Positions 30,122 to 45,688 of a DNA stretch of 64,000 bases are shown here, piece after piece. The position numbers were made by a program, and so were the translations under genes. The notes below the pieces were generated by a model. The model searched no databases. It was not told where the DNA came from and was given only the letters and a program-made list of their open reading frames with translations. Each line of letters begins with the position of its first letter. Position 1 is the first letter of the stretch. The stretch lies in the IMG/VR virus record IMGVR_UViG_3300021255_000060, positions 62,961 through 126,960 of that record. One strand, written 5' to 3'. The stretch comes from a virus. Taxonomy: Duplodnaviria; Heunggongvirae; Uroviricota; Caudoviricetes.

Positions 30122-30272
30122 GTTACTTCTTTATTTCAACATTTGTCACAAAGACCACAACGGTCAAATAAATTATAAATCGTTCAATATATAGGCTTAG
30201 AGGAGGTCATTACAACCTCCTCTCCACACTCTATACATTTGTACGTATGTGTATAAGATAACATTCTATAGA

Positions 30273-30698
30273 TTACTGCAATGCAGCAATTTGATCTTCG
30301 ATTTCCTTAATTCGATCTTCAGGTGTCTTCTGAGATTCTTTAAGCTCTTCAAGCTTGGAATTAAGTACAGCTAGTTCATGCTCTTTCTTCTGTTCCTCTT
30401 CTTTAGCAAGTTTATAACCAAGTGCCAGATTAACAAATTCCCTCTTGAAGGTAAGATTTTTAATTGCTTCTTCATTAGGATTCTTAACCCATTCATCTTC
30501 AAGAGAAAGAGCATTAATCTGTTTATCCAAGGATTTAATCAAAGATCGAAGTGAATTGATTGTAAGGTTCTTAACAATATCAATTGCTGAATACTGCTGA
30601 CCCATAGGTCCAGTAACAACAATATCATTCATTATTGCATATGCAATTTTGTCTTTAAGCTGAGACATGTGCTCTTCAGTAAAATTAATCTTTCCCAT
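30273..30698 (-). CDS. coiled-coil protein
   Basis: 141-aa ORF. Confidence 0.3.
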   Translation of the reverse strand: MGKINFTEEHMSQLKDKIAYAIMNDIVVTGPMGQQYSAIDIVKNLTINSLRSLIKSLDKQINALSLEDEWVKNPNEEAIKNLTFKREFVNLALGYKLAKEEEQKKEHELAVLNSKLEELKESQKTPEDRIKEIEDQIAALQ

Positions 30699-31452
30699 AG
30701 ATTTTTAATTCTTTAGTTTCTGTATTAAATTCAAATATTTCTCTACTATCTATACAATATGCAGGAACATGATTAGTATTTCTTATTGTAGAAATATTTA
30801 TAAATATTCCTTGATGTTCTAACTGCGTATGTCCAAAAATCTGAATAACTGAAAATGGATTTAACATTTCAGATGCATCACACCAAAATGGTCCACCATA
30901 TGGTGCTTCTCCACCTCTAATGTATCCAATGTCAAATATGGTAGATCTAAAGTTTGTATACCACATCTTTTTAACTAATCCATCATAAGAACATTCTTTG
31001 TTCCATTCAGAATTAATCCAATCCAATAATCCATTTAAGTCTACATCATCTGGAATAAATTTTTCTCTTTTATTTGCATCTATCCAACCTTTACTTATTC
31101 CAGCATGACTAAATATAACTTCAGTAAATTGTTTAAATGGTTTAAATAGTTCTATATTTTCTCTAAACAATGCATGTGCATCATTATAGAATTTCTTATT
31201 AAATCTAGAACAACCATAATCTTCCCAAATATAATGACAATCATGATTACCTGCTAATAGTGTCACATTGCTATTATTCTTAGCAAAATCAATAATTTCT
31301 TTAAGATTTGCTAATCCATCTTCAAAGGAGCATCCTTCATATGAATATGGATCAAGATAATCTCCAAGAAAAACAATTGGAGTATCTTTTACTTCCAATA
31401 CAGGTTTGTAAAAATCCCGACAATGAATGTCTGGGCATATAATAAGCTTCAT
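30685..31452 (-). CDS. PPP-family Ser/Thr phosphatase-like metallophosphoesterase (lambda phosphatase-like)
   Basis: Motifs ICPDIHC, FLGDYLDPYSYEG (GDxVDRG-like) and LAGNHDCHY (GNHE-like). Confidence 0.5.
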   Translation of the reverse strand: MKLIICPDIHCRDFYKPVLEVKDTPIVFLGDYLDPYSYEGCSFEDGLANLKEIIDFAKNNSNVTLLAGNHDCHYIWEDYGCSRFNKKFYNDAHALFRENIELFKPFKQFTEVIFSHAGISKGWIDANKREKFIPDDVDLNGLLDWINSEWNKECSYDGLVKKMWYTNFRSTIFDIGYIRGGEAPYGGPFWCDASEMLNPFSVIQIFGHTQLEHQGIFINISTIRNTNHVPAYCIDSREIFEFNTETKELKIYGKD

Positions 31453-31487
31453 ATTTTTATTTTTTTATTTTAATTAGTCAGCAGGCT

Positions 31488-31588
31488 GGGACTCGAACCC
31501 AGATCACGGCAATCCAAAGAGCAAACTTGAGTTTGTAAGTATCTTATAATATACTTGATACGTGTCCTAACCATTAGACGACCTGCTA
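31488..31588 (-). ncRNA. about 100-nt tRNA-like RNA: canonical acceptor, D-arm and T-arm, but an aberrant 60-nt central region containing the ACTTACAA motif
   Basis: Sense 5' TAGCAGG-TC-GTC-TAATGGTTAG-GAC ... GATACTTACAAACTCAAGTTTG ... CTGGG-TTCGAGT-CCCAG-CCTGCTG. No standard 7-nt anticodon loop could be drawn. Either an intron-containing tRNA or a tRNA mimic. Confidence 0.4.
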
Positions 31589-31598
31589 AATATTTAGT

Positions 31599-32381
31599 TT
31601 ATTTTAAATCTCCGAGACTAATAAACGTATTTGATCCAGTTCCCATAAAAGTTGGAACTTTCCCATCCCATTTTTCAATCCACATCTGCTGAAGGATTTC
31701 TTTAGTCAATGCACGATTCTTAAGTTCATTAGCTTCTTTCTCTGCCTGTGCAGCAACAACTAGCTTTTCTGCTTCTGCTTTAGCAAGTGCTACTTCATTC
31801 TGAGCACGCATAGCATTCTGTTCAGCCTGAACTTTACGATTGATTGATTCCTCAATACTACTAGGATATTTCAATCCACTAGTAAGCTGCTCAAGATGGA
31901 ATCCTTCTTTCTCCAAAGATTCAGATAGATAAGACTCGATATTCTTTTCAAATTCAGCACGCTTAGAAACCAATTCATCTGTAGTATACTGATTTAACTG
32001 AACACGAAATGCATCACGAATATAATTAAAAAGAACACCTTCAATAATTTTATCAAGTTTCAGTCTATATTTCTTAAATACAACTGGAGACTGTCCTTCA
32101 TTAATTCGCAGAGAAATAGTAGGATCTACAATAAACTCTGGACCATCCTTTGCATTAATTGTAAATTCAGGATAATCAATTGTCTGAACAAAAGTAGGAT
32201 ACTCGTATACTTTAGTAGTAAACGGATTAAAGAACACCCATCCAGTGACAGATGCTACATCATCAACACCTTTATTAGATCCATAAAGGTGTACTTTCAT
32301 ACCTTCACAACCTGCATCAATGCGAGTACAACTAGAAATAGCAATAATAATTGTAGTAAGAATAATAATAAACTTTTTCAT
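31599..32381 (-). CDS. SPFH/Band-7 domain lipoprotein
   Basis: Signal peptide with lipobox (..AISSC). C-terminal ..AEQNAMRAQNEVALAKAEAEKLVVAAQAEKEANE. Confidence 0.45.
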   Translation of the reverse strand: MKKFIIILTTIIIAISSCTRIDAGCEGMKVHLYGSNKGVDDVASVTGWVFFNPFTTKVYEYPTFVQTIDYPEFTINAKDGPEFIVDPTISLRINEGQSPVVFKKYRLKLDKIIEGVLFNYIRDAFRVQLNQYTTDELVSKRAEFEKNIESYLSESLEKEGFHLEQLTSGLKYPSSIEESINRKVQAEQNAMRAQNEVALAKAEAEKLVVAAQAEKEANELKNRALTKEILQQMWIEKWDGKVPTFMGTGSNTFISLGDLK

Positions 32382-32382
32382 T

Positions 32383-32577
32383 TTATTTGATAATTGTTGT
32401 TAAACATTTAGTTTTAACACTAAGAATTGCAGCTACGACAATAATAAAAACTCCAATAATGTTGGCCAATGTATCTGCTGCACTAAGTAATGCGAACGCT
32501 CCATCTAAGATAAGAATGACAGCAATAATCCACACTACAAATAATAGGATTTTACTTGTCTTCATAAATCCAATCAA
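32383..32577 (-). CDS. small membrane protein
   Basis: 64 aa, hydrophobic. Confidence 0.25.
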   Translation of the reverse strand: MIGFMKTSKILLFVVWIIAVILILDGAFALLSAADTLANIIGVFIIVVAAILSVKTKCLTTIIK

Positions 32578-32776
32578 TTATAATTTCTTCTAGCCATAAA
32601 ATTGGCCAAGCGATAATGAATAAACAATGTTCCCAACCTTTAAATTCTTCATTAACAATTCTAGATATACAATATCCAGATATTATATAACAAAGAATTC
32701 TGAAAGAGATGAGAATGATTCTTGCGATTTCGATTGACATGATGGAAAAAATACTTTTAAGTGGGATCCGTCCCAA
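32552..32776 (-). CDS. small membrane protein
   Basis: 74-aa ORF. Confidence 0.2.
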   Translation of the reverse strand: MGRIPLKSIFSIMSIEIARIILISFRILCYIISGYCISRIVNEEFKGWEHCLFIIAWPILWLEEIIIDWIYEDK

Positions 32777-32937
32777 TCAAACATGTTATCAATTACATAT
32801 ATCGCACAATTATAGATAGAATCAGGATCTTTACAAAGACTCCAATTACTATCTTGTCTAGCAGATTCTTTAGAAGAATCTCCAGTTCTTACATATCTTA
32901 TAAGAATATTTTCTAAAAGATGTTCTTCATTAGTCAT
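32683..32937 (-). CDS. hypothetical protein
   Basis: 84-aa ORF. Confidence 0.2.
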   Translation of the reverse strand: MTNEEHLLENILIRYVRTGDSSKESARQDSNWSLCKDPDSIYNCAIYVIDNMFDWDGSHLKVFFPSCQSKSQESFSSLSEFFVI

Positions 32938-32969
32938 TTATTTCCTCTAGAATTTTTGTAGATTTTACT

Positions 32970-33542
32970 TTATATTTCATTTTCAAATCTAAAATTCATC
33001 ACCGCATCAGCAAGGTCGTTTCCGTCCGGGCAAAAAGCCATGAGCATGTGAGCAACAAGACCGGCAGACATCCCGCTATGCCCCTGGTCCATAAAAGCTT
33101 TGTAAGCTTTCCGAATCCGTTTATCATAGGACATGCTTTCGTCACGCATAATCTTGCAAAGGTCAAGAGTGTAATCCAGCTCCATTCCGTGATAGAGGTC
33201 TCCAAGGCGGATAGGGACAATTTTATCCCAATAGTCATACTGGTCTTCAAGGATTACACCACGGGCTCTCTCGCAATAGACAGGAACAAGGCTCGGAATG
33301 CTATCTTTATGCTCTTTTTCCTTACGTTCATATTCATCACGCCAATCCTGCACTTCCTTATCATACTGTCCCTTGGTCTTACCCATAATCTTCATATAGG
33401 CTTCATCAAGAGTGTCCGTAGAGAGGATTTCATGGCCGTTGAACTTACCAAAGCAAGTATCTTCGCATTCTGCGCTCTCTTTAAGGAGCCTCTTCCAAGC
33501 GCTGTCAATATTCTCGCCTGGATAAAATTCAATCTCTTTCAT
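32970..33542 (-). CDS. hypothetical protein (markedly GC-richer gene)
   Basis: 190-aa ORF. Local GC is visibly higher than the backbone. Confidence 0.35.
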   Translation of the reverse strand: MKEIEFYPGENIDSAWKRLLKESAECEDTCFGKFNGHEILSTDTLDEAYMKIMGKTKGQYDKEVQDWRDEYERKEKEHKDSIPSLVPVYCERARGVILEDQYDYWDKIVPIRLGDLYHGMELDYTLDLCKIMRDESMSYDKRIRKAYKAFMDQGHSGMSAGLVAHMLMAFCPDGNDLADAVMNFRFENEI

Positions 33543-33608
33543 ATTTATTCCTCCTTTTTTGCGTTATAAACATATCGCTACATAAATTTTCGTATCTCTT
33601 TCGTTAAA

Positions 33609-34001
33609 CTATTTCATATACGGGTCTTTACAACCAATCCATCCGCCAATTTCCTTATCATAGTGCGACCAGTCATTTCCGTTATAATTGGTCATGACAC
33701 CATTCACATAGGCCCTTATTCTCCACAATTTGATGATTCCCTTCTCAAACATATCCAGAAACATCTCCTTTTCTTTTTCACTGGCCAATTTGGTATAAAA
33801 TGTTCCCCAATCGCCATAACTTGATAATGAGAATCCATTCAGACCTTTTGCCTGATAACTACAATCAGAGAGCATTTCCGGTTCGTATCCGAGATTCCTT
33901 ACATAATCGTGATCACCTCCATTAGTGTTGTAATCAATGGTGTCACCTCGGTCAAAGGCGGCGTTAAATGGATATGGTAAACTATTCTCTTCTTTCTTCA
34001 T
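33609..34001 (-). CDS. hypothetical protein
   Basis: 130-aa ORF. Confidence 0.3.
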   Translation of the reverse strand: MKKEENSLPYPFNAAFDRGDTIDYNTNGGDHDYVRNLGYEPEMLSDCSYQAKGLNGFSLSSYGDWGTFYTKLASEKEKEMFLDMFEKGIIKLWRIRAYVNGVMTNYNGNDWSHYDKEIGGWIGCKDPYMK

Positions 34002-34158
34002 TTAATTAATTTTTATTTTTGAAAAAATACCACCACATAAATTCCTTTATATATCCATTATTAAACCACCAACATTTAAAATGGCGATACATGCCAAATT
34101 CTAACTTGCCGATTCTAAATGAAAAAAGTATATCTGCCATTATTCCTCCTTTCTTGTG

Positions 34159-34650
34159 TTAATCCATTGTCGCTTTTGGAAGACTATCATACCATTGCCT
34201 TGCGACATTGGGATATTGATAAAACATTCTCGCAGTGAAAGCCATAGTTGCTTTAATTGGAATATTATCTGGGTGATTATATCTTGCCTTCCAATCGTTC
34301 ATATTTTGGGTGAATTTCTCCAAATCCACCTCTGGCTGCTCCTGCTCTTTCTCACAAAACCCAGTGCATTCGTACACACCATTTTCATTTATCAAACTCC
34401 GCATACCGCCATGTGGATTATAGCAATAGTCATCATCTTTTCCATGATGGATGCATTTTGAACATATTTCTTCGGGCTGCTCCTGCTGGAGAGAGTTGAT
34501 GATTTGAAGAATACTCATATCCTCTCCATTTAAGTCTGACCATAATTGGTCTTGCCTATCAGACCTGTCTATGTTTTTCATCCATTCCTTTCGTTCCTTA
34601 ATTTGAACTTTTATAATGGATTTCAGTTTTTCTGCGTCAATATATCCCAT
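34159..34650 (-). CDS. hypothetical Cys/His-rich protein
   Basis: 163-aa ORF. Confidence 0.3.
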   Translation of the reverse strand: MGYIDAEKLKSIIKVQIKERKEWMKNIDRSDRQDQLWSDLNGEDMSILQIINSLQQEQPEEICSKCIHHGKDDDYCYNPHGGMRSLINENGVYECTGFCEKEQEQPEVDLEKFTQNMNDWKARYNHPDNIPIKATMAFTARMFYQYPNVARQWYDSLPKATMD

Positions 34651-34653
34651 AAT

Positions 34654-34944
34654 CTAAAAAATATCTTCATCTAAGTCAACTATTAAAGATGTCTGAGTTG
34701 TAAGACCTACTATCTCTTTCAGATCATTCTCAGTCTGATGGATATAACCTCTTGTAACTGACTGATAGCCTCCTACATAATAACTATTACCTTTCTTTCT
34801 CCACTCTTCTTCGACCATCTTCCAAGCTTCTTCCTTTGTTTCAGCTGATACAAGATAGTGAGGTGTACCTGCTCCCCAGGTTTGTATATGCCATACTTTC
34901 ATATCAAAGTTTATTAAAAAGGTGCGGCTCCGTATGCGTTGCAA
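34654..34944 (-). CDS. hypothetical protein
   Basis: 96-aa ORF. Confidence 0.3.
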   Translation of the reverse strand: MQRIRSRTFLINFDMKVWHIQTWGAGTPHYLVSAETKEEAWKMVEEEWRKKGNSYYVGGYQSVTRGYIHQTENDLKEIVGLTTQTSLIVDLDEDIF

Positions 34945-35358
34945 CTGACTTAATCCTTATGCCATAAGTTCATCTACGGACTTGTCTCTACCGCACCCTA
35001 TGTTTTATATCAGTCTTCTTTTTCTTTTCTTTCTTCTATAAATCCATGTAAGCATCCAAGAACAAAAGGTAGGAAAAGGAGTAATTTCCAACAATCCTTG
35101 TTGTTAATACACATGATAATGCAAACAAAGATTCCACAGCCTAATATAAATGGGTAAAAGCTATATCTTCTCATTCTTCTTACATCAGTTTCTTTTAAAA
35201 TTCTCAATATCGAGCGTCAATGTATTTACTCATGGTATAGTCTGTCATGTCTTAAAGTTATCAGCCACCACTTTGCTTTCCAGAGAGAACGACAATTAAG
35301 ATGGTTAATTCCATCTCCATAGATGTTTTCTATCCATTCAGCATATCTCTCTGGATAC

Positions 35359-35691
35359 TTACAATTCTTGAATAAAAGTTCTATGATAAGTGTTAATACA
35401 ATCATTGGCTAATTTAAGAAGGTCGTTATAAAGGGATTCTAATGGTACTTGCTGCCTACAAGTCATAGGGACAGTTTCAAGGATATCTTTTAACCATTTC
35501 ATCTGCTCCTCGCTGGGTTTCCAATGAGATTGTCGTTCTTTTTGCCAGTTTGCAAAGTGATGAGCCGTTTTTTCAATGGTTTGTGTTATATCCTCCCAAT
35601 CAAATTCATCAAGTGTACCCTGTCCATTACCAAAGATTTCATTGAATAGTTCTTCCGTGTATCTTTTAATTTCTTCTTCCATATTTTTCAA
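35359..35691 (-). CDS. hypothetical protein
   Basis: 110-aa ORF. Confidence 0.3.
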   Translation of the reverse strand: MKNMEEEIKRYTEELFNEIFGNGQGTLDEFDWEDITQTIEKTAHHFANWQKERQSHWKPSEEQMKWLKDILETVPMTCRQQVPLESLYNDLLKLANDCINTYHRTFIQEL

Positions 35692-36586
35692 TGTATCTGA
35701 TTATCTTATTCCAATCATTCTCCTTAAAAGCCTTGTCTATATCCTCACATTCACCATTTGACAAACACATCTTCCCTTCCGGTCTATTCTCGTCAAGATA
35801 GTTCATAAACTTTATTGCAAGGTCGTGCTTGACGGACTGATAGATTTCTTGCTTTGGTTGTGGACGGAGGGATTTAAGAAAATACTGCAATTCCTTCTTA
35901 TACTCTTTGCTAAGTGTCATTGTTCCACCACTATAAGGGACGGCTGTACAATGTTCGATGATTTCAGAAATGTTATTTATTTTTTCTTCGTCCTCCTCGC
36001 TCCACTCTGTGAGCTTCATACCATCATCACCATTCCACGTTGCGGAATTAGGTTTTTCTTGTACGATCCCATTACAATTGGAGGCACGACAATAACCGAA
36101 TCTAGAACGGATTATATCCAATTGCCCCCTTTCTGTAGATGTAAGTGTATTATTTGTGATTATGGCTTTATTCAAAAGGGCTACATCAGTTTTTGTAGGT
36201 TTCCAACAAAGTTTCTGCTCTTTCTTCAACATCTCATCCACCTCATCAGAGACTCTCTTCATTATCTTCGGGTCACAGTTCTCTACACATTTATCAAAAA
36301 GAGCATTACGCTTGGTGTAGTTTGGCTCTTTCTGCTTTTCGAGGTAGGCAATCCATCTATCTATCATTGGTTGAGCATAATCGCCATCACTTTTCCCAAC
36401 AAGACCAAGATAATTGATAATCTCTTTTCTTATTCTCTCGTCCTCACTCTCAGCAAGCTGTGGAAAGATAAATTCAGCTATGTCTTTCGGAGAATCATCA
36501 ACACTATGTCCCCAAGTACCAGAGGCCCATTCTTTACATCTCTCCAAAGCTTCATCATAAGCTCTTGCTTTTTCTTCTATATTCAT
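35666..36586 (-). CDS. hypothetical protein
   Basis: 306-aa ORF. Confidence 0.35.
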   Translation of the reverse strand: MNIEEKARAYDEALERCKEWASGTWGHSVDDSPKDIAEFIFPQLAESEDERIRKEIINYLGLVGKSDGDYAQPMIDRWIAYLEKQKEPNYTKRNALFDKCVENCDPKIMKRVSDEVDEMLKKEQKLCWKPTKTDVALLNKAIITNNTLTSTERGQLDIIRSRFGYCRASNCNGIVQEKPNSATWNGDDGMKLTEWSEEDEEKINNISEIIEHCTAVPYSGGTMTLSKEYKKELQYFLKSLRPQPKQEIYQSVKHDLAIKFMNYLDENRPEGKMCLSNGECEDIDKAFKENDWNKIIRYIEKYGRRN

Positions 36587-36588
36587 AT

Positions 36589-37056
36589 CTAAATTAAATA
36601 TTCAAGACAATAATAAAGGGCACCATCTACAGCTTGTTCATATGTTGCATATTCAGAATCACTTAGTTGAAAGTCTCTATAATAAATGATGTCTCTATTC
36701 GCATTTCCTTCATCGTCATATGCTATACCTTCAACTGGAAATTTTTTAGGTTTACCGTTCTTTCCAAGACAATATATCTTATAGCAATATGATTTAGAAG
36801 TACATTCATAATTATAGTCAATTACTACTAGAATAGAATGTACTTCTCTAAGTCATTTCATTGCCATTTGAAGAGTTGGAGCGGAACATTCATTCTTGTA
36901 ATCAGTAAAAAGAGTTTCACCTTTATTCCAATTACATGCACATCCCTGTGCTCTTACAAGTTTTCCATTAACATATAGATAATCACATTCTGCATCAAAT
37001 CCTTTTTCTTTCAAAAATTTTGCTGCCTCGTAGGAAACATAATCTTCGGTTATCAT
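36589..37056 (-). CDS. hypothetical protein, paralogue A (in-frame TGA at 36853-36855)
   Basis: ORF 36853..37056 continues through TGA: ..LQMAMK[TGA]LREVHSIL... Ends at TAG 36589-36591. The N-terminus MITEDYVSYEAAKFLKEKGF matches paralogue B. Confidence 0.45.
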
Positions 37057-37058
37057 AA

Positions 37059-37478
37059 CTAAATTAAATTTTCTAGACAGTATTTTATAGCTGCTTCGCA
37101 GGCTTCTTCATAAGTTTGATATTCATGACATGAAGTTCCCTTTGTTCCTTGGATTAAATCCATTGTATTGGAGCAACTAAATGTGTAACAAATACCATCT
37201 TGTGAAAACGATGTGACAATATCAATATAGAGACTGTGTACTTCCCTCAACCATTTCATAGCCATTGCCTGCGTCATTAGCCGATATCCGTTTTTGGGCC
37301 TTTGAAAACTTTCAGTTGGAGCGTCTACATAATCATAAGCGCCGATACGACTTATCCAATACATTTTATTATCAGCATCAATGAGCCAATAACTTTCGTC
37401 CGGATTATATTCGAACCCTTTTTCTTTCAGGAGTTTCGCTGTCTCATAAGAGACGTAATCTTCGGTAATTTGTGCCAT
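37059..37478 (-). CDS. hypothetical protein, paralogue B
   Basis: MAQITEDYVSYETAKLLKEKGF ... QAMAMKWLREVHSLY, with TGG at the position where paralogue A has TGA. Confidence 0.45.
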   Translation of the reverse strand: MAQITEDYVSYETAKLLKEKGFEYNPDESYWLIDADNKMYWISRIGAYDYVDAPTESFQRPKNGYRLMTQAMAMKWLREVHSLYIDIVTSFSQDGICYTFSCSNTMDLIQGTKGTSCHEYQTYEEACEAAIKYCLENLI

Positions 37479-37490
37479 AATTATTCATTT

Positions 37491-37712
37491 TTATAAAATA
37501 CTTCCGACAATTGCACCGATTATTCCAGTTATTATCATGACTGCTGTACAAAGAAGAATAAAAATACAAAGCCATATTTTTAAATTCATAACTGTTTCCC
37601 AATGAGTCTTTCTTAATTCACGAAAAACATTTGAATTTGTTATTATGTTATCAATCATATAGCAGAGTAACGCAAGTACAAATGCAATGGTTACAATAAT
37701 AACATAAGTCAT
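37491..37712 (-). CDS. small membrane protein
   Basis: 73 aa, 2 TM helices. Confidence 0.3.
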   Translation of the reverse strand: MTYVIIVTIAFVLALLCYMIDNIITNSNVFRELRKTHWETVMNLKIWLCIFILLCTAVMIITGIIGAIVGSIL

Positions 37713-37732
37713 ACTCTATTCTGTTTTATAAT

Positions 37733-38089
37733 CTATTCATCTACAAAATCCTCAAAATCGTATGGATTGTCATCCAGCGAACGTTGCCTGAACGTTCTGC
37801 ATAACTTCTCCCTATCCATCCCATCGTAAAAACTATAAGTTCTGAAACTATCCATCAGTTCTTCATATGACACCCCTTTCAATCCGCCATTTCCAACGGC
37901 TGACCTATAGTCATTGTATTCCTTGTATAATACCCATTCGTAGACGTTATATTCAGGAACACACAGCCAATAGGCATAGGGTTCATCGTTGAAATATAAA
38001 TTTGTAGCATCAAAGTATTGAGGACACAGCGTTTCAAATCTATCTATCATACATTCCTTCAGGTGCTTCAATGGCAAGTCCCTTCTCAA
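37733..38089 (-). CDS. hypothetical protein
   Basis: 118-aa ORF. Confidence 0.3.
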   Translation of the reverse strand: MRRDLPLKHLKECMIDRFETLCPQYFDATNLYFNDEPYAYWLCVPEYNVYEWVLYKEYNDYRSAVGNGGLKGVSYEELMDSFRTYSFYDGMDREKLCRTFRQRSLDDNPYDFEDFVDE

Positions 38090-38435
38090 TTAAACCACGG
38101 AAGTCAAAATGATGAGAAAGAAGCCAATCAAACATATTCAGTTCATTTGCAAGATTGCACATCATTGGTTGAAAATCAGGATGCAGTTCATATACACAAT
38201 GACATGCTTGAAATTCTTTCTTCTCTTCCTCCGTCATACTTGACATCGGGCGAAGATAAGGCTTAAACGAACTATCTCCTGTTGAGTATAGCGACAAATA
38301 TAATTCATCATACAGCCTACCATCAAGTTCCCTATCAAATGGTACATTACCCTTCCACTGATATAATCCTATAACAAGGTAAGGCAACCTTGCACAAAGG
38401 TCCTTCAATAATAGTTGCTTTTCTTTCTGTGTCAT
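38040..38435 (-). CDS. hypothetical protein
   Basis: 131-aa ORF. Confidence 0.3.
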   Translation of the reverse strand: MTQKEKQLLLKDLCARLPYLVIGLYQWKGNVPFDRELDGRLYDELYLSLYSTGDSSFKPYLRPMSSMTEEEKKEFQACHCVYELHPDFQPMMCNLANELNMFDWLLSHHFDFRGLIEKGLAIEAPEGMYDR

Positions 38436-38588
38436 GATTAGTCTAAATTAAATGGAAGTTCACTGATTACTTCTCCTTCCAATTTAAGAACAAGTATAGA
38501 TCTATGATTAATATAATCGTAATCCCAAGTAATTTTAAGATTATTTTTAAGATATTTTCTTATTTCTTCCATAATATATAATTTTTTG

Positions 38589-38663
38589 TACTCTGGGTAG
38601 GCTTTGAACCTACGACCTTCACATTATAAGTGTGCTGCTCTGACCAGGCTGAGCTACCAGAGT
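38589..38663 (-). tRNA. tRNA-Ile (UAU), decodes AUA
   Basis: Sense ACTCTGG-TA-GCTCAGCCTGGTCAGAGC-A-GCACA-CTTATAA-TGTGA-AGGTC-GTAGG-TTCAAAG-CCTAC-CCAGAGT. Confidence 0.5.
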
Positions 38664-38674
38664 ATTTCCAGTAT

Positions 38675-38968
38675 CTACAATACAATTAGTTTCGTAGCTT
38701 TGCTCTTCCTATCAATAATGATTGCATAGATTGGCTTTCTATTAAATCGCTGATACACTTTATGTCTAACTACAGACTGTTTGTTAGACATATAAATTTC
38801 TCCATCATATTCAGCAAAATATTCAATTCGAATCTTTCCTGCCTTATTGATAGACTGTTCTTCAAAGAACGTTATACTTGCAGTATCTTTAAGAACAAGT
38901 GTATCTTTCTGAGCATATCCAATCAAACACACAAATAAGGTAATAATAGTAATGATAAACTTTTTCAT
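38675..38968 (-). CDS. secreted protein (signal peptide)
   Basis: 97 aa. N-terminal MKKFIITIITLFVCLIGYA. Confidence 0.3.
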   Translation of the reverse strand: MKKFIITIITLFVCLIGYAQKDTLVLKDTASITFFEEQSINKAGKIRIEYFAEYDGEIYMSNKQSVVRHKVYQRFNRKPIYAIIIDRKSKATKLIVL

Positions 38969-39053
38969 TTAATAAAGCATATAAATTAGATTGTTTGCAA
39001 TCAAAAAATCAAGAAGTAATTCTGGATCAGTATCATGAAATAAATTATGATAC

Positions 39054-39464
39054 CTAACGCTTCCAAAACTTAAAAGTCTTTTTCGAAGCAAGTTTCTCAT
39101 ATCTTACATCACTAGTAATAACTTCATCGTGATCATTTATTGCATAAAAAGCTCCCTTGGGCACAATTGCTTTAACAATAATATACTTATAGGAACTATT
39201 TGCCAAAGATTCTGCTGATTTTCTATTTTTGAATAAATGAAAAACACCAGAACCTACAGTCATATCAGAATTACAAAATTCAACTGTTGCAGAATCCGAA
39301 CTATACCACTTTCCAAGACAAACCTCCATTTCTATATATGGCGTTCTGTATTTGTAATATCTTTTGCCATTAATTGGATATGTATCAATCTGTTCAAGAA
39401 TTTTGTAAAATACTTTATTCCTTTTAGCTTGTTTTAAAACGAGCTTCTTTGTAGAAAAACACAT
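39054..39464 (-). CDS. hypothetical protein
   Basis: 136-aa ORF. Confidence 0.3.
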   Translation of the reverse strand: MCFSTKKLVLKQAKRNKVFYKILEQIDTYPINGKRYYKYRTPYIEMEVCLGKWYSSDSATVEFCNSDMTVGSGVFHLFKNRKSAESLANSSYKYIIVKAIVPKGAFYAINDHDEVITSDVRYEKLASKKTFKFWKR

Positions 39465-39467
39465 GTC

Positions 39468-39902
39468 TTAAAGTTCTTCAGGAGATTCTAATTTTTCAAG
39501 ATTGTATTTACCATTAGTTGTACGGAATACAACATCGTTAAGAGTATCAATATAGATGTAATCATCATAACAGAAGAAGACAAGAACTACTTTATTAATG
39601 CAACCATCAACTTTGTTTGCATAACGTTCATCACCACCAGTTGCAAAGATCAACTGTTTGATAATATCAATTTCTTCCTGATTTTTAGGAATACAAACCA
39701 ATACACGATTTTCAGAATTTCCACAATTAAAGATAGCCTCTTCATCAGCATCTTTAATTGCCATTTCTTTTACTCGACCTTTGAGTACTCCTACTGCACT
39801 TTTATCATATTTTTCACATTCGGTACGATCATCGAATTCTGTACCATCTGCTGCCACATATACAGTTTTATATGACAGCTGTTCAATTTTCTTTTCTTTC
39901 AT
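39468..39902 (-). CDS. hypothetical protein
   Basis: 144-aa ORF. Confidence 0.3.
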   Translation of the reverse strand: MKEKKIEQLSYKTVYVAADGTEFDDRTECEKYDKSAVGVLKGRVKEMAIKDADEEAIFNCGNSENRVLVCIPKNQEEIDIIKQLIFATGGDERYANKVDGCINKVVLVFFCYDDYIYIDTLNDVVFRTTNGKYNLEKLESPEEL

Positions 39903-39904
39903 AT

Positions 39905-40144
39905 TTATTCAGATTCAGGGTTCCACATTGGAGCAGTAATACCTCCCTTCTTAGCAGAAGAGACAAGATCCTGATGAAGAGTTGCAGATTTAACATCTAC
40001 ATGCTTTCCATCAATAAAGAAGCCACGATTTGTCTGGACAAGAATTCCAGGAACAAACTTATGGGAAGGATAACGCTTATAGAAGCGTTCATTATGACGA
40101 ACAGTTTTGTTCGAAACTACAGAGTAAAGATTGTAAAGTTTCAT
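39905..40144 (-). CDS. hypothetical basic protein
   Basis: 79-aa ORF. Confidence 0.3.
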   Translation of the reverse strand: MKLYNLYSVVSNKTVRHNERFYKRYPSHKFVPGILVQTNRGFFIDGKHVDVKSATLHQDLVSSAKKGGITAPMWNPESE

Positions 40145-40261
40145 AATTTATTATGATTTAAGATTGGATACACTTTATAAGTAAAATGTAATTGAAAACT
40201 TTAATTGATACTTAGATTAAACAATAAATGATAGTTTTTCTAATTTTAATTGTAAGTATCA

Positions 40262-40545
40262 GATAGTACCCAAGTGCAGTAATGAACTGCTTACTCCCAG
40301 TAAAATCCGGGGCTTCATCAATAAAAGCCTACTTGGGTATGGTCGTTCTGGTCACCACCCAGAACTTTGATTTTATGTCGGTAAAATCACAAAACCCGAA
40401 AAGACTCCCAATATCGATCTTACAGCGTTCCTATGCTTCTCGTTGTAGGCACGGTTGTTTTGGGTTAAACAACAACCCGATCCCTTTGTGGTGTTTAGGC
40501 TGGATCGATTGCCTAACTATTTTTGTGAATGTATATACCAAGATT
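40262..40545 (-). ncRNA. GC-richer ORF-free structured region (candidate ncRNA), flanked 3' by the ACTTACAA motif
   Basis: Long-range complementarity ACCCAAGT..ACTTGGGT. Only a spurious plus-strand ORF (40282..40554) covers it. No tRNA cloverleaf could be drawn. Confidence 0.3.
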
Positions 40546-40692
40546 AAACGGTAAGAGAATTGGAGCAAAAATAAGTGCTAAAACAATTCCACCGAGTATA
40601 ATCCAAGCATTTTCTTCATCAGTATCTGTTATATATCCAGACATGAAGAAAACGCTAAATAAATAATAAAATATGAAAAAAAGTGTAATCAT
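40513..40692 (-). CDS. small membrane protein
   Basis: MITLFFIFYYLFSVFFMSG... The listed ORF 40513..40752 has an N-terminal extension that is a translation of tRNA-Leu sequence. Confidence 0.3.
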   Translation of the reverse strand: MITLFFIFYYLFSVFFMSGYITDTDEENAWIILGGIVLALIFAPILLPFNLGIYIHKNS

Positions 40693-40709
40693 AATAAAAA
40701 TGTTTTTAG

Positions 40710-40795
40710 TAGCCCCGACTGGACTTGAACCAGCACGGACCTTGCGGTCCAAGGGATTTTAAGTCCCTCATGTCTACCTATTCCATCACGAGGCC
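40710..40795 (-). tRNA. tRNA-Leu (UAA), class II
   Basis: Anticodon arm AGGGA-CTTAAAA-TCCCT. Variable arm TGGACC-GCAA-GGTCC. T-arm GCTGG-TTCAAGT-CCAGT. Acceptor GGCCTCG/CGGGGCT. Confidence 0.55.
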
Positions 40796-40802
40796 GTAAA
40801 TA

Positions 40803-41078
40803 CTAATATACTTTCTTACCAGTTAATTTTTCAAACCAGTTTTTCCAGTAATCGTATTGTTGATCATTAACTAATTTTATGAATTTCATTAGATTTTCTT
40901 CACTTGGAAACCAAGGAAATACTCCATCTCTAGAATACTCACAAGCCAATCCAGACTGTTCTGCAAGAGAATGTAAATCTACTTCATCTGTAGTAAAAGG
41001 ATGACCTGATGATTCTTCTATTAGATAGTAACCTTTCCATTCCTTTATTATTTTGCATTCTTTACCTAATAGTCGCAT
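40803..41078 (-). CDS. hypothetical protein, paralogue pair member 1
   Basis: ..GYYLIEESSGHPF..GVFPWFPSEENLMKFIKLVND..YWKNWFEK. Confidence 0.35.
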   Translation of the reverse strand: MRLLGKECKIIKEWKGYYLIEESSGHPFTTDEVDLHSLAEQSGLACEYSRDGVFPWFPSEENLMKFIKLVNDQQYDYWKNWFEKLTGKKVY

Positions 41079-41373
41079 TTTCTTTTACTTTATCCCAGAT
41101 TTCCTTTCCAAACTTCTCTTCAAAATATTTATCCCAATATGTAACCATATCTGGGGCATTGTTTAGAAGATTTATAAATTTGAGAATTGATTCTTCATCT
41201 TTGATCCATGGAAATATTCCACCTTCAGCACCTTTCCAACCATTTACAACTGCAATTTCTTCAAGATCTAAAGTTGGATGTACAAAAGATCCACGTGAAT
41301 CATCATCATAGAGATAGTATCCTCCACTACCTCTTCTAATTTCGCAATTCTTTCCGCATACTATCATAATCAA
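41062..41373 (-). CDS. hypothetical protein, paralogue pair member 2
   Basis: ..GYYLYDDDSRGSF..GIFPWIKDEESILKFINLLNN..YWDKYFEE. Confidence 0.35.
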   Translation of the reverse strand: MIMIVCGKNCEIRRGSGGYYLYDDDSRGSFVHPTLDLEEIAVVNGWKGAEGGIFPWIKDEESILKFINLLNNAPDMVTYWDKYFEEKFGKEIWDKVKENATIR

Positions 41374-41623
41374 ACAATTCTATAATTTCTGCATCAAGAT
41401 ATTTAGTAAATTCTTCTTGATGTTCCACTTCAAAATAATACGGAGATCTCTCTGCTACATCTAAAAAGAGATAGTGAATCTGAGAATCTCGAATGTAATT
41501 AATTTGAAGTGTACGCTTCATTGGTTTAAACTTATTCTGATTCAAACCAATACCGATTCCTGTAATAAAACTAAGAATCAGTACTGCTATCATCACTACT
41601 AGATTGAATACTTTGGAGCTCAT
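41336..41623 (-). CDS. membrane-anchored hypothetical protein
   Basis: 95-aa ORF with an N-terminal TM helix. Confidence 0.3.
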   Translation of the reverse strand: MSSKVFNLVVMIAVLILSFITGIGIGLNQNKFKPMKRTLQINYIRDSQIHYLFLDVAERSPYYFEVEHQEEFTKYLDAEIIELFDYDSMRKELRN

Positions 41624-41903
41624 TGTATATTCTTTCTATATCTTTTCTTTGATTAGATGAAAGAGAAGAGATCTTCTCCTGAATTCTGTAATATTCATTG
41701 GCTAAAGAGAAATAAGTAAGATTATACTTAGGTTTCTTTTTAGCAATTACAAAAATAAGATAATCCGATGCTGAAATAAGAGGGAGATGTGCATACTTCT
41801 CCTTAAGCTCATCTAATGTGATGAGTTCAGAATCTTTCGTAATTTCAGTCGGATTTAATTCTGTATCATACAGAACAAATTCTTTGTTTACTAATGCTAG
41901 CAT
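41571..41903 (-). CDS. hypothetical protein
   Basis: 110-aa ORF. Confidence 0.3.
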   Translation of the reverse strand: MLALVNKEFVLYDTELNPTEITKDSELITLDELKEKYAHLPLISASDYLIFVIAKKKPKYNLTYFSLANEYYRIQEKISSLSSNQRKDIERIYNELQSIQSSSDDSSTDS

Positions 41904-42032
41904 AGCATACGATGATCAAGTGGAACACCAGCATTTACTTTACAAGGAAAAAGTCTAACTCTTTTCTGCTTTTTTACTTGTCCGTTTTTGTCAATAATTT
42001 CAATTTCTTCAGTACGAAGGATGGAGATGTTT

Positions 42033-42407
42033 CTAGTTTTCATATTTAAAGATATATGTTATTGAAATGTCACTATAATCAATATAAATTTGATTGTTAT
42101 TTTCTGCATGGAATTCAAATCGAATAGTTACTCTTTTACCATTTTTGTCTATTCCTTTATATGCTACTCGAATTGAATTTTGAAGTTCCTTTTGATATAT
42201 AAGGTCTAAGACAATATAAACTTGTTTTGAAGAAGAATATATTTCTATAACTTTGTCTTTTATGTCCAATTTCAGATTTGATTCTTTCCAATCAGACCAA
42301 TAATATTCTGTATCTGTTATAACTGCTGTATTAAATGCAGTAGTTCTATATTGTGCAAATGCAGATATAGAAATAAAAATTGCTAAAATAGCAAAAATGT
42401 GTTTCAT
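42033..42407 (-). CDS. secreted protein
   Basis: Signal peptide MKHIFAILAIFISISAFA. Confidence 0.3.
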   Translation of the reverse strand: MKHIFAILAIFISISAFAQYRTTAFNTAVITDTEYYWSDWKESNLKLDIKDKVIEIYSSSKQVYIVLDLIYQKELQNSIRVAYKGIDKNGKRVTIRFEFHAENNNQIYIDYSDISITYIFKYEN

Positions 42408-42664
42408 AATCTTTGTATTTGATGCATTAATGTTGTAATGTCGTCTTCAGAACAATATCCAATATTATCATCTGAAATTCTTTGATCAATGACTGGAACA
42501 TTATTCCTAAGAAGTTCTAGTTCGTAAGGAAGTTCTTTGTTTGTTGCAGAAGAACGATAGTATATGTTTACTCCAAATCCATTTGGAAAATTCAATGTTG
42601 CTTTTGCTGGTTTTCCTTCAGAAAATTTAAGATCTGAGAATGAAAGAAACTTTCTTTTTGGCAT
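42404..42664 (-). CDS. hypothetical protein
   Basis: 86-aa ORF, first gene after the divergent region. Confidence 0.3.
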   Translation of the reverse strand: MPKRKFLSFSDLKFSEGKPAKATLNFPNGFGVNIYYRSSATNKELPYELELLRNNVPVIDQRISDDNIGYCSEDDITTLMHQIQRL

Positions 42665-42904
42665 GGCAGATATATATTTTAATGGGTAGATTGGGATTTT
42701 GAGAGTTGGAAGAATTGGAGAGGATTGGAGAGGAAAGGAGAGTGTCCCAAAGCCTATCCAATGTCGATCAACCCAAAAATTCAGCTACAAAGATAGCATG
42801 AATTTTTTAAATTTCCAAAAAATAAAATGATAATTTTTAATCTTAAAAATCTATAATTAGAATAGAAGGGGTAACTATTTAACTTATTGAAAATCAATAT
42901 TTTA

Positions 42905-42975
42905 ACCCTATTTTTTGATTCACCTGTGAACCTTTTTGAGTCATCTATGACCCCTTTTGATTCATCTGTGATTCA
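42905..42975. repeat. iteron-like tandem direct repeats, set 1 (about 20 nt x3)
   Basis: TCACCTGTGAACCTTTTTGA / TCATCTATGACCCCTTTTGA / TCATCTGTGATTCAAAAG. Confidence 0.5.
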
Positions 42976-43079
42976 AAAGTTGCAAAAATTTGCAACAAAA
43001 TTTTTTTATGACCCAATGGCGAAGCCATTAAGTATAGTTCCTTTTATTTATTTTATATAGTTCGTGTCCTTTTTTGGCG

Positions 43080-43150
43080 CGAACCTATACCGTTTTTGTC
43101 GTCAACCTATGTCATTTTTGTCGTCAACCTATACCGTTTTTGTCGCGGCA
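43080..43150. repeat. iteron-like tandem direct repeats, set 2 (22 nt x3)
   Basis: AACCTATACCGTTTTTGTCGTC / AACCTATGTCATTTTTGTCGTC / AACCTATACCGTTTTTGTCGCG. Confidence 0.55.
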
Positions 43151-43227
43151 GTCCAATTTTTCAAAACTGGTGTAAAATTTGGACATGTTATTTTTTATTA
43201 TTATATTTGTAAAAATAAAAATAATGT

Positions 43228-43962
43228 ATGGAAGAACAAAAAACTAAACAACATGTACAAGTACCAAATCCAAAACAAAACGATGGTACTAAACTTAAAT
43301 CAATTGATTATCTTATATATGCAAATATAAGACGCTTTATGAATAAAGAAACGATGTCTTGCTATCCATCAATAGATACAATTGCATCCGTATCTAATTG
43401 TAATAGGAAAACTGTAATGGCATCGATTAAGAGATTAGAAGAATTGAATATGCTAACTACAATTAAAAGAAAAGGGGCTTCTACTATTTATAAGTTTGAT
43501 AAATTGAATAAATTTGAAATGTTTACTCCAGAATTCTTAGATAATGAAGATATGACTCCTGAAGAAAAAGCATATCTAATTGGATTGCAATCACAATCTT
43601 ATAAAAATGAGGATTATGCTGTAACTACATATAGTAATACAGAATTATCTGAAAATTTAAACATTCCTATTAGAAATATTCAAAGATACAATAAGTCTCT
43701 TAAAGAAAAAGAAATTATGATGGAAATAGATACGCAAATCAAAGATGAAGCTGGATTTAATGTACCTGCTAAAGCTGTAGATTTGCATAAGATTGGGCAA
43801 GCAATTCTCTTTATAAGTAAAAGAGTAGATGATCATGAAGATCGTATTACCAGATTAGAGAAAATGATAGATCTTCTTAGTAAAGAAAATAAATCTCTTA
43901 AAAAAGAAAATGAACTTCTTAAAACATCTAAAACTGTAGAACCAATCAACATTGATTTCTAA
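43228..43962 (+). CDS. replication initiator / replisome-organiser-like protein (N-terminal winged-HTH) with a C-terminal coiled coil
   Basis: ETMSCYPSIDTIASVSNCNRKTVMASIKRLEELNMLTT is typical of the DnaD / phage replication-O / RepA HTH. Preceded by two iteron arrays. Intact ORF with no TGA. Confidence 0.45.
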   Translation: MEEQKTKQHVQVPNPKQNDGTKLKSIDYLIYANIRRFMNKETMSCYPSIDTIASVSNCNRKTVMASIKRLEELNMLTTIKRKGASTIYKFDKLNKFEMFTPEFLDNEDMTPEEKAYLIGLQSQSYKNEDYAVTTYSNTELSENLNIPIRNIQRYNKSLKEKEIMMEIDTQIKDEAGFNVPAKAVDLHKIGQAILFISKRVDDHEDRITRLEKMIDLLSKENKSLKKENELLKTSKTVEPINIDF

Positions 43963-43971
43963 AAAAATAAT

Positions 43972-44005
43972 CCCCAGCGACCTTCACAGGTGGCCGGGGA
44001 TTTTT
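43972..44005 (+). terminator. rho-independent terminator
   Basis: AATCCCCAGCGACC..GGTGGCCGGGGATTTTTAATT directly after the stop codon. Confidence 0.45.
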
Positions 44006-45100
44006 AATTATTGAGTCCGCAAAAACTAATATTTCATTTTAATGGATTACGGACATCCTTTGCACTTTTATATGGAAACTAACAAAATCTTTCAGTCTCA
44101 ATGAAACTGCAACACTTAGTACTCGATAGCCGATTCAAACAGCTGTTTCCGACTGGAGAAGTCGATGTCCTAGATCGCTAGACGAATCGAGCATATTTTA
44201 TCACTTGGTATCTTTGTCAAGATCCATAATGTGTTTGGATACAACATGCCCATATGAAATGACATGCGAATAATTTCGATTTACAGTCTGTTTGTAAACC
44301 GGATTTGGATTGAATTGTTTGGTTGTTTTCTTGAGTCCCATATAAATTTTGATTTGGATTTTTCTCTTTATCTGTTGCCCTGAGCGTAGCGAAGGGCTTA
44401 TATAAAAACTGGAGAACACACTAAACTCCAGTTATATACACTCTGAAAACCACTACCTATGACAAAGAACGCTGTGTGTTTTTACTTTGCACCTGGGCAA
44501 ACGATCAAGTTCACCCAGGCATAACTACTACTAACCGGATTGGAGGACTCCCTAGAGATAACAGAGCCGTATGTTATCAATCCTTGAACTCGTTTCACCT
44601 TAAACTGTCTAGGGACAGGCGTACAACCAGTTCTATTGTACGACTACGGAATAGTTTTATCACCGTTTATGCCACTCCCAACGACCCTGGCTTTGTATGG
44701 ATCTTACAAACTCTTTACTATGTCCATCAGTTCATAAAGAGCGGGTGACCAGTCCATCAAAAAACACAAGACGCGACCCTTGTGTAGTCAAGATTTTAAA
44801 AACCATATGGGCAGTTCATTCTCCTTATATGAACTGGTGTTCCCTTAAATCTTGGATAATGGAGTTACCCTATTTAGTACTAAATTAAGGAGTAGTACCA
44901 TCTCCTATTGACCTTATGCAGGTATTATAAGCCCTCCGGTTTCTAAATAAATGTCTCATCTTTAAATGAGACCCATGATGAAATACTTGTCATCTATTAG
45001 ATGGAGAACTCAAAATCCAGTACAAGTATTCCATTTGTTGGCATTTTTAATTCGGAGGGTACCGGCATTGGATAGTAAATAATCACCGTACAAGCGACCT
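44006..45100. other. 1.1-kb ORF-free convergent intergenic region rich in hairpins (candidate ncRNA or cis element)
   Basis: Hairpins GCCCTGAGCGTAGCGAAGGGC, CTGGAG..CTCCAG, CCTGGGCAAACGATCAAGTTCACCCAGG, GTACAACCAGTTCTATTGTAC and TCTCATCTTTAAATGAGA. Only short spurious ORFs. Confidence 0.3.
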
Positions 45101-45118
45101 CATACGGTGATTATAAAA

Positions 45119-45688
45119 CTATTCGGTAGGTCCAACATACTCGCTGATGAGGACAACTTTTTGCTTCTTTACAGCGGGTTCACTTACCTGCTTGCCATCT
45201 TTGATTACAGGGTTACCTGCATCATCGAATACATCGGTATAGATTCGATTCCCATCAGCATCAAATGCAGGAACATCGATTTCGATAGTACCAGCACCAG
45301 TGATTTCACCGACAGCAGCAAGAGCCTTCAGGCGAGCGAGATTGTTACCAAGGTCATACCAGGTAGGATTCACAGGCGTGTTGTTAGCATCACGCTTTGA
45401 AAGTGCAGGCAGACCGAACCAAGTAGCCTTCTTACGGCCATTGTATTCGGATTCACATTTCACAATGTGATAGCCAGCCTTCTGACCTTTACGAACTGCG
45501 ACCCATTCAACTTCCATGTCCTCGAATTTAGGGAACCGAAGGGTCTCACCTTCACGAATAGTGTAAGTGTCAAAATTTACACCATCATTCTGCAGGGCAT
45601 TAAGGTTAGTGACGCGTTTGTGCTCACGTGCATTCTGCCCAGTAGTGCCAAAGATAGGCACCTCAACGTTAATCTTTTCAATATTCAT
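45119..45688 (-). CDS. hypothetical protein (first gene of the GC-rich island)
   Basis: 189-aa intact ORF ending TAG. Preceded 3' by the hairpin ACCGTACAAGCGACCTCATACGGT. Confidence 0.35.
   Translation of the reverse strand: MNIEKINVEVPIFGTTGQNAREHKRVTNLNALQNDGVNFDTYTIREGETLRFPKFEDMEVEWVAVRKGQKAGYHIVKCESEYNGRKKATWFGLPALSKRDANNTPVNPTWYDLGNNLARLKALAAVGEITGAGTIEIDVPAFDADGNRIYTDVFDDAGNPVIKDGKQVSEPAVKKQKVVLISEYVGPTE

Follow-up and report, generated by a model that had tools for sequence, protein, structure and literature searches.

Probable reading of TGA as tryptophan by a phage-encoded UCA tRNA in the replication and virion-side modules of a crAss-like phage

Yutin et al. (2021) reported on 243 crAss-like phage genomes in which TAG is reassigned to glutamine or TGA to tryptophan, mostly in late genes, and on the suppressor transfer RNAs (tRNAs) that accompany the change; in the Zeta group they noted a family B DNA polymerase (PolB) gene with multiple TGA codons (PMC7886860). 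Phage Lera, described in 2025 and assigned to the genus 'Echekvirus', has a genome of 179.6 kb with 26 tRNAs, among which a tRNA-Sup-TCA, and features TGA codons in terminase, RNA polymerase, helicase and structural genes; a tRNA block is found at the start of most Zeta genomes (PMC12386605). Borges et al. proposed a timing model, according to which recoding regulates late and lytic genes, and described replication genes as 'variably' (representatives of the TGA-recoded clades) or 'mostly' (Lak phages) in alternative code (10.1101/2021.08.26.457843). In the Mgcod study, Pfennig, Lomsadze and Borodovsky described dual-coded blocks with a suppressor upstream of recoded genes (10.1101/2022.06.29.495998). 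We describe here a stretch of 64,000 nucleotides (the window) corresponding to positions 62,961 to 126,960 of the IMG/VR virus record IMGVR_UViG_3300021255_000060 (Caudoviricetes), in which TGA is probably read as tryptophan in some genes, terminates others, and is nearly missing in a long block that hosts a tRNA with the anticodon UCA.

Very probably the window belongs to a crAss-like phage of about 168 kb that uses two coding regimes, and translates TGA as tryptophan by its own UCA tRNA, encoded in a code-neutral block. Altogether, 99 in-frame TGA codons are found in 33 of the 96 genes called in the window. In-frame TGA and TGG codons of the called genes were counted block by block. The replication module (271..11728, minus strand; 1-12 kb) features 40 TGA and 23 TGG, with TGA-free genes interspersed. 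TGA codons are in frame in the genes encoding the primase (271-1095, 6 TGA), DnaB (3221-4336, 4 TGA), an SF2 helicase (5013-6230, 5 TGA), PolB (7139-9025, 9 TGA) and RNase H (11099-11728), all on the minus strand. In the adjoining code-neutral, or dual-coded, block (12060..44000, minus strand), 51 genes totalling 8,184 codons contain 9 TGA and 140 TGG. In the module leading into the virion genes (51219..64000, both strands; 44 TGA vs 19 TGG), TGA prevails again, with 26 TGA and 8 TGG at 51.1-57.8 kb (plus strand), 9 and 5 at 57.7-60.7 kb (minus strand), and 9 and 6 at 60.7-64 kb (plus strand). All eight plus-strand genes at 51-58 kb host in-frame TGA codons. TGA accounts for 6% of the tryptophan codons in the 12-44 kb block and for 60-76% in the flanking modules, and the block departs from its flanks (40/23 and 26/8) with Fisher p values of about 2e-18 and 3e-17. 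Base composition is not the cause of this difference, because the density of off-frame TGA is equal across the blocks, at 30-37 per 1000.

Genes of the code-neutral block terminate with TAA (34) or TAG (17). Given the scarcity of TGA relative to TGG, and since no TGA is needed as a stop, the block specifies almost identical proteins under either code. Between it and the virion-side module lies an island of higher GC content (44200..51100, minus strand; GC 0.41 vs about 0.31 elsewhere), made of about 16 small standard-code genes, some of which end in TGA. As a stop, TGA was eliminated from the code-neutral block and kept in the island. Read in order of transcription, the minus strand hence passes from standard code with TGA stops, through the code-neutral block with its tRNAs, to genes in which TGA corresponds to tryptophan. 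A first-pass annotation of this DNA had extended recoding to the whole AT-rich backbone. Its list of genes carrying in-frame TGA holds for each entry, namely the primase, DnaB, SF2 helicase and PolB genes, the GroEL and NUDIX genes (1 TGA each) and the plus-strand genes; the extension to the backbone does not, as two thirds of the genes lack TGA, and half of the window either is readable in both codes (12-44 kb) or follows the standard code and has genuine TGA stops (44-51 kb).

Coding density was compared by a simple tiling of ATG-started open reading frames (ORFs) under table 11 and under table 4, in which TGA is sense; a code in which TAG is sense was used as control. Moving from table 11 to table 4, density rises from 0.61 to 0.90 at 1-12 kb and from 0.44 to 0.88 at 51-64 kb. 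At 12-44 kb the two values are 0.76 (53 ORFs) and 0.78 (50 ORFs), and at 44-51 kb density is 0.67 in both cases. Mean ORF length increases from 146 to 260 residues at 1-12 kb and from 119 to 201 residues at 51-64 kb. ORFs are lengthened by table 4 only where TGA occurs, and reading TAG as sense left coding density in the window unchanged. The table 4 translations gave full-length matches to Toprim primase, DnaB, SF2 helicase, RNase H and GroEL, and the NUDIX and other products were matched too. Two tryptophan-like contexts had been singled out by the first-pass annotation, and both are found exactly as quoted: GL[TGA]Q[TGG]HP in the lysozyme/SLT-like gene (55235-55876, plus strand), and QN[TGA]M[TGG]DDY in the ORF at 53765-54892.

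Residues facing the TGA codons were tabulated in homologous proteins. For PolB, 157 relatives were confirmed in IMG/VR, 80 loci were kept (L001-L080, 41-93% identity), and 76 sequences could be aligned. Tryptophan occupies one TGA column in 74 of the 76 sequences, and another in 61, with five further relatives having TGA themselves. Two columns feature phenylalanine or tryptophan, and one tyrosine; of the remaining ones, three feature variable hydrophobic or acidic residues, and one arginine. The comparison was extended to every gene of the window with a homologue in L001-L080. At the 36 TGA columns, homologues have tryptophan (25%), TGA (18%), tyrosine (17%) or phenylalanine (15%), which make up about 76% of all residues. 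Tryptophan is the commonest residue, and the profile agrees with that of 44 control columns corresponding to TGG codons (W 45%, TGA 6%, Y 6%, F 12%). Glycine does not prevail at any of the 36 TGA columns, so that genetic code 25, in which TGA specifies glycine, is excluded; it is outside the ten commonest residues and was seen in a single column (4 of 80 relatives). Close relatives from other samples (83-98% nucleotide identity) keep 16-29 TGA codons each. Where they differ, TGA is exchanged with TGG in ten cases and with TTT in one, and never with arginine, glycine or stop codons. The TGA in the GLWQW motif is one of the ten, being replaced by TGG in two close relatives. Judged from these comparisons, TGA is a sense codon for tryptophan both in the replication genes and in the genes leading into the virion module.

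It may be supposed that the host itself reads UGA as sense, either as tryptophan (code 4, Mollicutes-like) or as glycine (code 25, Gracilibacteria/Absconditabacteria), and that the phage just mirrors its host. The AT-rich genome (GC about 0.31) would fit, and so would the presence of sense TGA in essential replication genes, usually held to be early or middle. TGA should then be uniformly distributed; TGG makes up 94% of the tryptophan codons in 51 consecutive genes, and island genes end in TGA. In addition, a UCA tRNA is encoded by the phage itself, glycine prevails at no TGA column, and the relatives of the polymerase and of the probable terminase are all crAss-like, with Bacteroides, Flavobacterium, Cellulophaga and Azobacteroides as recorded hosts. 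All four use the standard code. A host with code 4 or code 25 is very improbable, being largely refuted by the block structure, the phage-borne UCA tRNA and the lack of glycine columns.

Eighteen tRNAs were identified by ARAGORN, all on the minus strand at 16.7-44.2 kb and all in the code-neutral block. The putative suppressor, with anticodon UCA, is located at 16732-16803. It was labelled 'SeC' by ARAGORN and scores 60.1 bits against the Rfam tRNA model, with the anticodon loop CUUCAAA. The tRNA is 72 nucleotides long, matches the canonical model along the whole of its 71 positions, and has an acceptor stem of 7 bp and a short variable region. By direction of transcription it is the last tRNA of the array, and lies about 5 kb upstream of the RNase H gene, the first heavily recoded one. 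Among annotated phages it is matched best by tRNA-Trp genes, of which two belong to Crassvirales. In the anticodon arm, ATGGT-CTTCAAA-ACCAT differs from the tRNA-Trp(CCA) of Kehishuvirus 'tikkala' (ATGGT-CTCCAAA-ACCAT) at one of 17 nucleotides, the sole difference being the change of C34 to T. The D arm, the T loop and the G discriminator are shared with the tRNA-Trp of Kehishuvirus and of Escherichia coli (the E. coli comparison sequence was confirmed at 100% identity), and a blastn search of the UCA tRNA against E. coli genomes gave no match. The main tryptophan identity elements in bacteria are G73 and the last two anticodon bases, and arginyl-tRNA synthetase needs A20 in the D loop; position 20 of the UCA tRNA is U. 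By its resemblances, the UCA tRNA is a tRNA-Trp derivative arisen by a C34-to-U change, and it is likely charged with tryptophan.

The ARAGORN label might suggest that TGA specifies selenocysteine, or else that TGA is read through in particular contexts without general reassignment. The chance of this is close to nil. The tRNA lacks the long extra arm and the extended acceptor of tRNA-Sec, 99 TGA codons are spread over 33 genes and exchange with TGG, and the aligned residues are tryptophan, phenylalanine and tyrosine, not cysteine. Selenocysteine decoding is ruled out by tRNA structure and alignments alike. Another tRNA of the array (20999-21073, minus strand), for which ARAGORN gave the anticodon tta, had to be considered as a suppressor of ochre (TAA) codons. 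The covariance model identifies it as tRNA-Lys(UUU) (21000-21072, loop CUUUUAA, 42.6 bits), and TAA is the main stop everywhere; ochre suppression was accordingly discarded. Acceptor stem and T arm of this tRNA are slightly imperfect, and no other lysine tRNA was called in the window. A weak tRNA-like match (16805-16874, minus strand; 20.9 bits, the Rfam threshold being 29) with a shortened T arm adjoins the suppressor, and may be a degenerate tRNA.

Two adjacent genes of the code-neutral block, both on the minus strand, illustrate the replacement of TGG by TGA. Paralogue B (37478..37059) encodes a protein of 139 residues of the phrog_12005 family. Paralogue A (37056..36589) starts 2 nucleotides past the TAG stop of paralogue B, and encodes 155 residues if TGA is tryptophan, and 67 in the standard code. 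The first-pass annotation had aligned a TGG of the former with a TGA of the latter, and the alignment is correct: paralogue B reads QAMAMK-W(TGG)-LREVHS and has no in-frame TGA, and paralogue A reads LQMAMK-TGA-LREVHS. The TGA is codon 68 of paralogue A (36853-36855) and corresponds to a nearly invariant tryptophan. In 148 of 149 homologous copies, gathered from IMG/VR loci L081-L155, the column is TGG, and none of the copies has an in-frame TGA. The two genes are adjacent homologues as had been stated, their N and C termini being clearly related, and both match PHROG 12005, a family unassigned as to function. They share only 36% identity, and hence are old members of a multi-copy family and not the outcome of a recent tandem duplication. 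Many contigs of large phages, of up to 412 kb, carry several members of phrog_12005, and in L081-L155 the codon for the conserved tryptophan is invariably TGG. The N-terminal half of paralogue A is 84% identical to a TGG-using copy on a 392 kb jumbo-phage contig, and its C-terminal half is best matched by copies from different contigs, which points to a chimeric gene or to horizontal exchange.

Since a change from TGG to TGA also looks like a nonsense mutation, the part of paralogue A downstream of the TGA was analyzed by itself. The frame continues for 87 codons, up to the TAG at 36589-36591 that had been indicated as its end. Only 0.2% of the shuffles of these codons were free of TAA and TAG, and the C-terminal half on its own matches homologues with E = 1e-23 and 47% identity. 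Paralogue A could still be a pseudogene, cut to 67 residues by a single G-to-A change, in which the downstream frame has not yet decayed. The mutation required is the classic one-step nonsense change at tryptophan, and it lies in a block that avoids TGA; the adjacent TGG paralogue would make the loss tolerable. Gene callers ended paralogue A at 67 residues on short contigs, in standard code, and at 155 on a long scaffold. All public contigs carrying the locus are 100% identical to the window and thus offer no substitution pattern from which selection could be shown; likewise, a protein identical to paralogue B is found on 4 public contigs. Against inactivation stand the open downstream frame and its homology, and the fact that about 90 other TGAs of the same genome are read as tryptophan and a matching tRNA is carried, so that readthrough is to be expected. 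Because of genome-wide TGA reading and of the UCA tRNA, the TGA of paralogue A is much likelier a sense codon, and inactivation has a poor chance. Paralogue A is one of the few genes of the code-neutral block in which TGG drifted to TGA. The change is probably tolerated, as the full-length protein is made once the suppressor is present, and the upstream copy B keeps TGG.

The arrangement of blocks and tRNA suggests how the phage with its two regimes could operate. The host would use the standard code. Island and code-neutral block would be expressed first, and the tRNA array, suppressor included, would be transcribed from the latter. The suppressor would be charged by the tryptophanyl-tRNA synthetase of the host and, on accumulating, would outcompete release factor 2 at UGA. 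Full-length replication enzymes, encoded downstream on the same strand, would then be made first, and virion proteins next. The first-pass annotation had asked how recoded early genes could be translated at all, and had envisaged either UGA reading by the host or a suppressor delivered by the virion or made immediately early. An answer is provided by the window itself, because the UCA suppressor is encoded in a block poor in TGA, located upstream of the recoded replication genes and on their own strand. The immediate-early alternative fits this location; UGA reading by the host is unneeded, and contradicted by the block structure. Recoding of core replication genes (primase, DnaB, SF2 helicase, PolB, RNase H) stands as originally proposed. 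The conflict then seen with a model restricting recoding to late genes was overstated, since recoded replication genes had already been published. The same local order is found in the relative L001, a 166 kb contig whose PolB is 61% identical. TGA-poor genes including those for an AAA ATPase and GroEL are followed by a UCA tRNA, and then by recoded RNase H and PolB genes. The tRNA shares its strand with PolB and precedes it by 8.6 kb, and its relative position agrees with that in the window.

A bolder proposal is that, in addition to virion assembly and lysis, the code switch may gate the onset of DNA replication, the isolated TGAs of the code-neutral block then being built-in delays. The idea comes from the position of the suppressor, which ends the tRNA array of the code-neutral block and is directly followed by a heavily recoded replisome, and from the succession of three regimes on one strand. 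Were it so, the TGAs of paralogue A, GroEL and NUDIX may hold back the full-length proteins until the suppressor has accumulated. We regard such gating as speculative and rather improbable.

Some observations weigh against translation of TGA as tryptophan by the UCA tRNA in a temporal program. Two TGAs fall at nearly invariant arginine columns, namely codon 40 of PolB (R in 75 of 75 sequences, CGA in L001) and codon 226 of the primase (R in 54 of 56). They are most simply viewed as Arg-to-Trp replacements through a CGA-to-TGA transition. Decoding of UGA as tryptophan is deduced from alignments and tRNA, and charging with tryptophan from sequence resemblance and general knowledge of identity elements. 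Temporal order is deduced solely from gene order and strand. In the Lera study, a comparable tRNA could not be told apart as Trp or Arg by tRNAscan-SE (PMC12386605). No gene for a release factor or for a tryptophanyl-tRNA synthetase was seen in the window. Recoding of the replication region is moreover a gene-by-gene mosaic: the peptidase M20 gene (6231-7148, minus strand), located between the helicase and PolB genes, has 0 TGA and 6 TGG, and to the left of the window (L162, 12385-15522) genes with TGA/TGG ratios of 0/11, 0/6 and 0/7 stand beside an NrdD gene with 5/4. Such a pattern points to an influence of gene age or of horizontal origin on TGA content, which explains it at least as well as timing does.

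The 12-44 kb block may be poor in TGA by history, and not by a need to be translated ahead of the suppressor: as a variable accessory region, put together not long ago out of standard-code phages, it would be too young for TGG-to-TGA changes. The mosaic just described speaks for this. So do the similarity of paralogue A to a jumbo-phage protein and the spread of its family in unrelated large phages. Proteins of the block are moreover found on 4-9 public contigs, and a protein of the late module on at least 24 (it is listed in 70 index blocks). Yet recent imports from standard-code phages should have brought TGA stops along, as in the island (3-4 of 17 genes), and the block has no clear ones. 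A TGA-poor stretch with GroEL, AAA ATPase and UCA tRNA is kept in L001, in spite of the divergence of the two polymerases, and dual-coded early blocks recur in such phages. The lack of clear TGA stops among the 51 termination codons indicates a block shaped to tolerate the suppressor. An origin of the block by recent assembly is on the whole unlikely. Timing and gene history are compatible as causes of the block structure, and do not exclude each other.

The code-neutral block hosts, in addition to paralogues and tRNAs, genes for GroEL, an AAA ATPase, an IMPDH-like protein, a NUDIX protein, phosphoesterases and a Band_7 lipoprotein, as well as many small ORFs. GroEL, NUDIX and paralogue A are exceptions with a single TGA. 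In only two genes of the block is a TGA so near the C terminus that it might serve as a stop. In the ORF at 18929-19129 (minus strand, codon 65 of 66) and in that at 42383-42664 (minus strand, codon 87 of 93), TGA precedes a TAG by 1 and 6 codons, respectively. These may be former stops backed by a nearby second stop, in which case readthrough adds only a few residues. Four TGAs are found in a small ORF (19530-19781, minus strand) adjoining tRNA-His; the product features the Trp-rich motif DWSWEHWDWLDW and is probably membrane-associated.

In the island, TGA terminates the ORFs 48605-48877, 48304-48525 and 47667-48011, each of which overlaps the following gene or is contiguous with it. Overall, 3-4 of about 16-17 island genes end in TGA, and readthrough, once the suppressor is active, would add 25-32 residues. 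The island is tiled by a standard-code caller on a short contig (L175), and sparsely annotated in TGA-readthrough calls of the long scaffold. None of its ORFs has a PHROG match, and a blastn search of the island against annotated phages gave no match. Either the island is the first region to be expressed, or it is a module of recent acquisition.

Plus-strand genes of the virion-side module lie at 51219-57704 and 60781-64000, and include those for an exonuclease and GroES; minus-strand genes lie at 57749-60626. In a 93% identical relative (L160), a probable terminase gene (13 TGA, 4 TGG) and a portal-like gene (4 TGA, 2 TGG) are found just past the edge of the window.

Two scaffolds of 167,915 and 167,933 bp, broken at different points as expected for a circular genome, set genome size at about 168 kb. 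Over its full length, PolB shares 46-49% identity with the polymerases of uncultured Crassvirales. The 15 top matches listed among annotated phages are all from uncultured human or macaque gut phages, 13 being 'cr' genomes of the Crassvirales kind. The probable terminase of L160 matches only crAss-like phages (about 28% identity, E = 1e-43), which are phages of Bacteroides, Flavobacterium, Cellulophaga and Azobacteroides, in addition to uncultured gut phages. Since a megablast search of the 26-38 kb segment and the blastn search of the island against annotated phages returned nothing, the phage has no close annotated relative. Relatives differ from the window by homing-endonuclease insertions. 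In L163 a GIY-YIG gene (6832-7593) is inserted beside or within DnaB, and in L161 a LAGLIDADG-like gene (13471-14397) is inserted in the terminase region. Such insertions are typical of large crAss-like genomes, many introns, inteins or homing endonucleases being expected in the Zeta group. On the basis of genome size, tRNA block, recoding and homing-endonuclease polymorphisms, the phage has been provisionally assigned to the large-genome Zeta group, to which it probably belongs.

For phages of this sort, publications had already covered the recoding of TGA to tryptophan, its extension to PolB and helicase genes, and the existence of dual-coded blocks, and the present finding is a rediscovery. 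Three features go slightly beyond what was published: the replisome is on the recoded side of a switch that involves no change of strand, a standard-code island is present, and a few single TGAs occur in the code-neutral block. The principle being already in print, these features refine knowledge without changing it. In practical terms, annotation in standard code breaks about one third of the genes, including those for polymerase, helicases, primase and virion proteins, and annotation purely with table 4 breaks the higher-GC island instead, so that block-aware gene calling is needed. The window offers a clean example of a phage that gives a stop codon another sense in the course of infection, and the responsible tRNA lies beside the genes that depend on it. 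In this lineage replication enzymes, and not only late genes, appear to depend on the code switch. This bears on the debate as to whether recoding is a timing device, a weapon against the host, or drift under AT pressure.

As in genetic code 4 of Mollicutes and mitochondria, a tRNA-Trp with U as first anticodon base is associated with a preference for TGA over TGG (60-76% in the recoded modules) in AT-rich DNA. Code 4 is however organism-wide, and accompanied by the loss of release factor 2, whereas here reassignment is limited to parts of a viral genome and has the release factor of the host as a competitor. The TGA-recoded Jade, Sapphire and Agate phages of Borges et al. share with the present one a standard-code host (for the present phage, as we infer), a TGA suppressor in a standard-compatible region, heavily recoded structural genes, and the near abandonment of TGA as a stop. 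In Agate phages replication genes are in standard code, while here they are recoded, as they mostly are in Lak phages. In contrast to the Borges phages, no 'code change module' made of release factor 1 or tryptophanyl-tRNA synthetase was found in the window.

Zeta phages are similar in genome size (about 168 kb, within their 145-192 kb range), in having a tRNA block with a tRNA-Sup(TCA), in the use of TGA as tryptophan in terminase, structural, helicase and PolB genes, in the family B polymerase and probably in a crAss-like terminase, and in the homing-endonuclease insertions found in relatives. They differ in that the present phage has no nucleotide match to annotated phages, its PolB reaching 46-49% identity with annotated Crassvirales and the best terminase match 43%, and in that recoding is among the heaviest in its core replication module. 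Lera also has an unused TAG suppressor, and none was seen in the window. The dual-coded phages of the Mgcod study share with the window a block near-identical under codes 11 and 4 that holds the suppressor upstream of an alternative-code block, and one of the code switches, at about 51 kb, coincides here as there with a strand switch. Dual-coded genes are enriched in that study for early functions such as DNA replication, whereas in the window the replication enzymes are recoded. Unlike in those phages, the switch at about 12 kb takes place without a change of strand, and a third regime is added by the island, in which TGA is a true stop.

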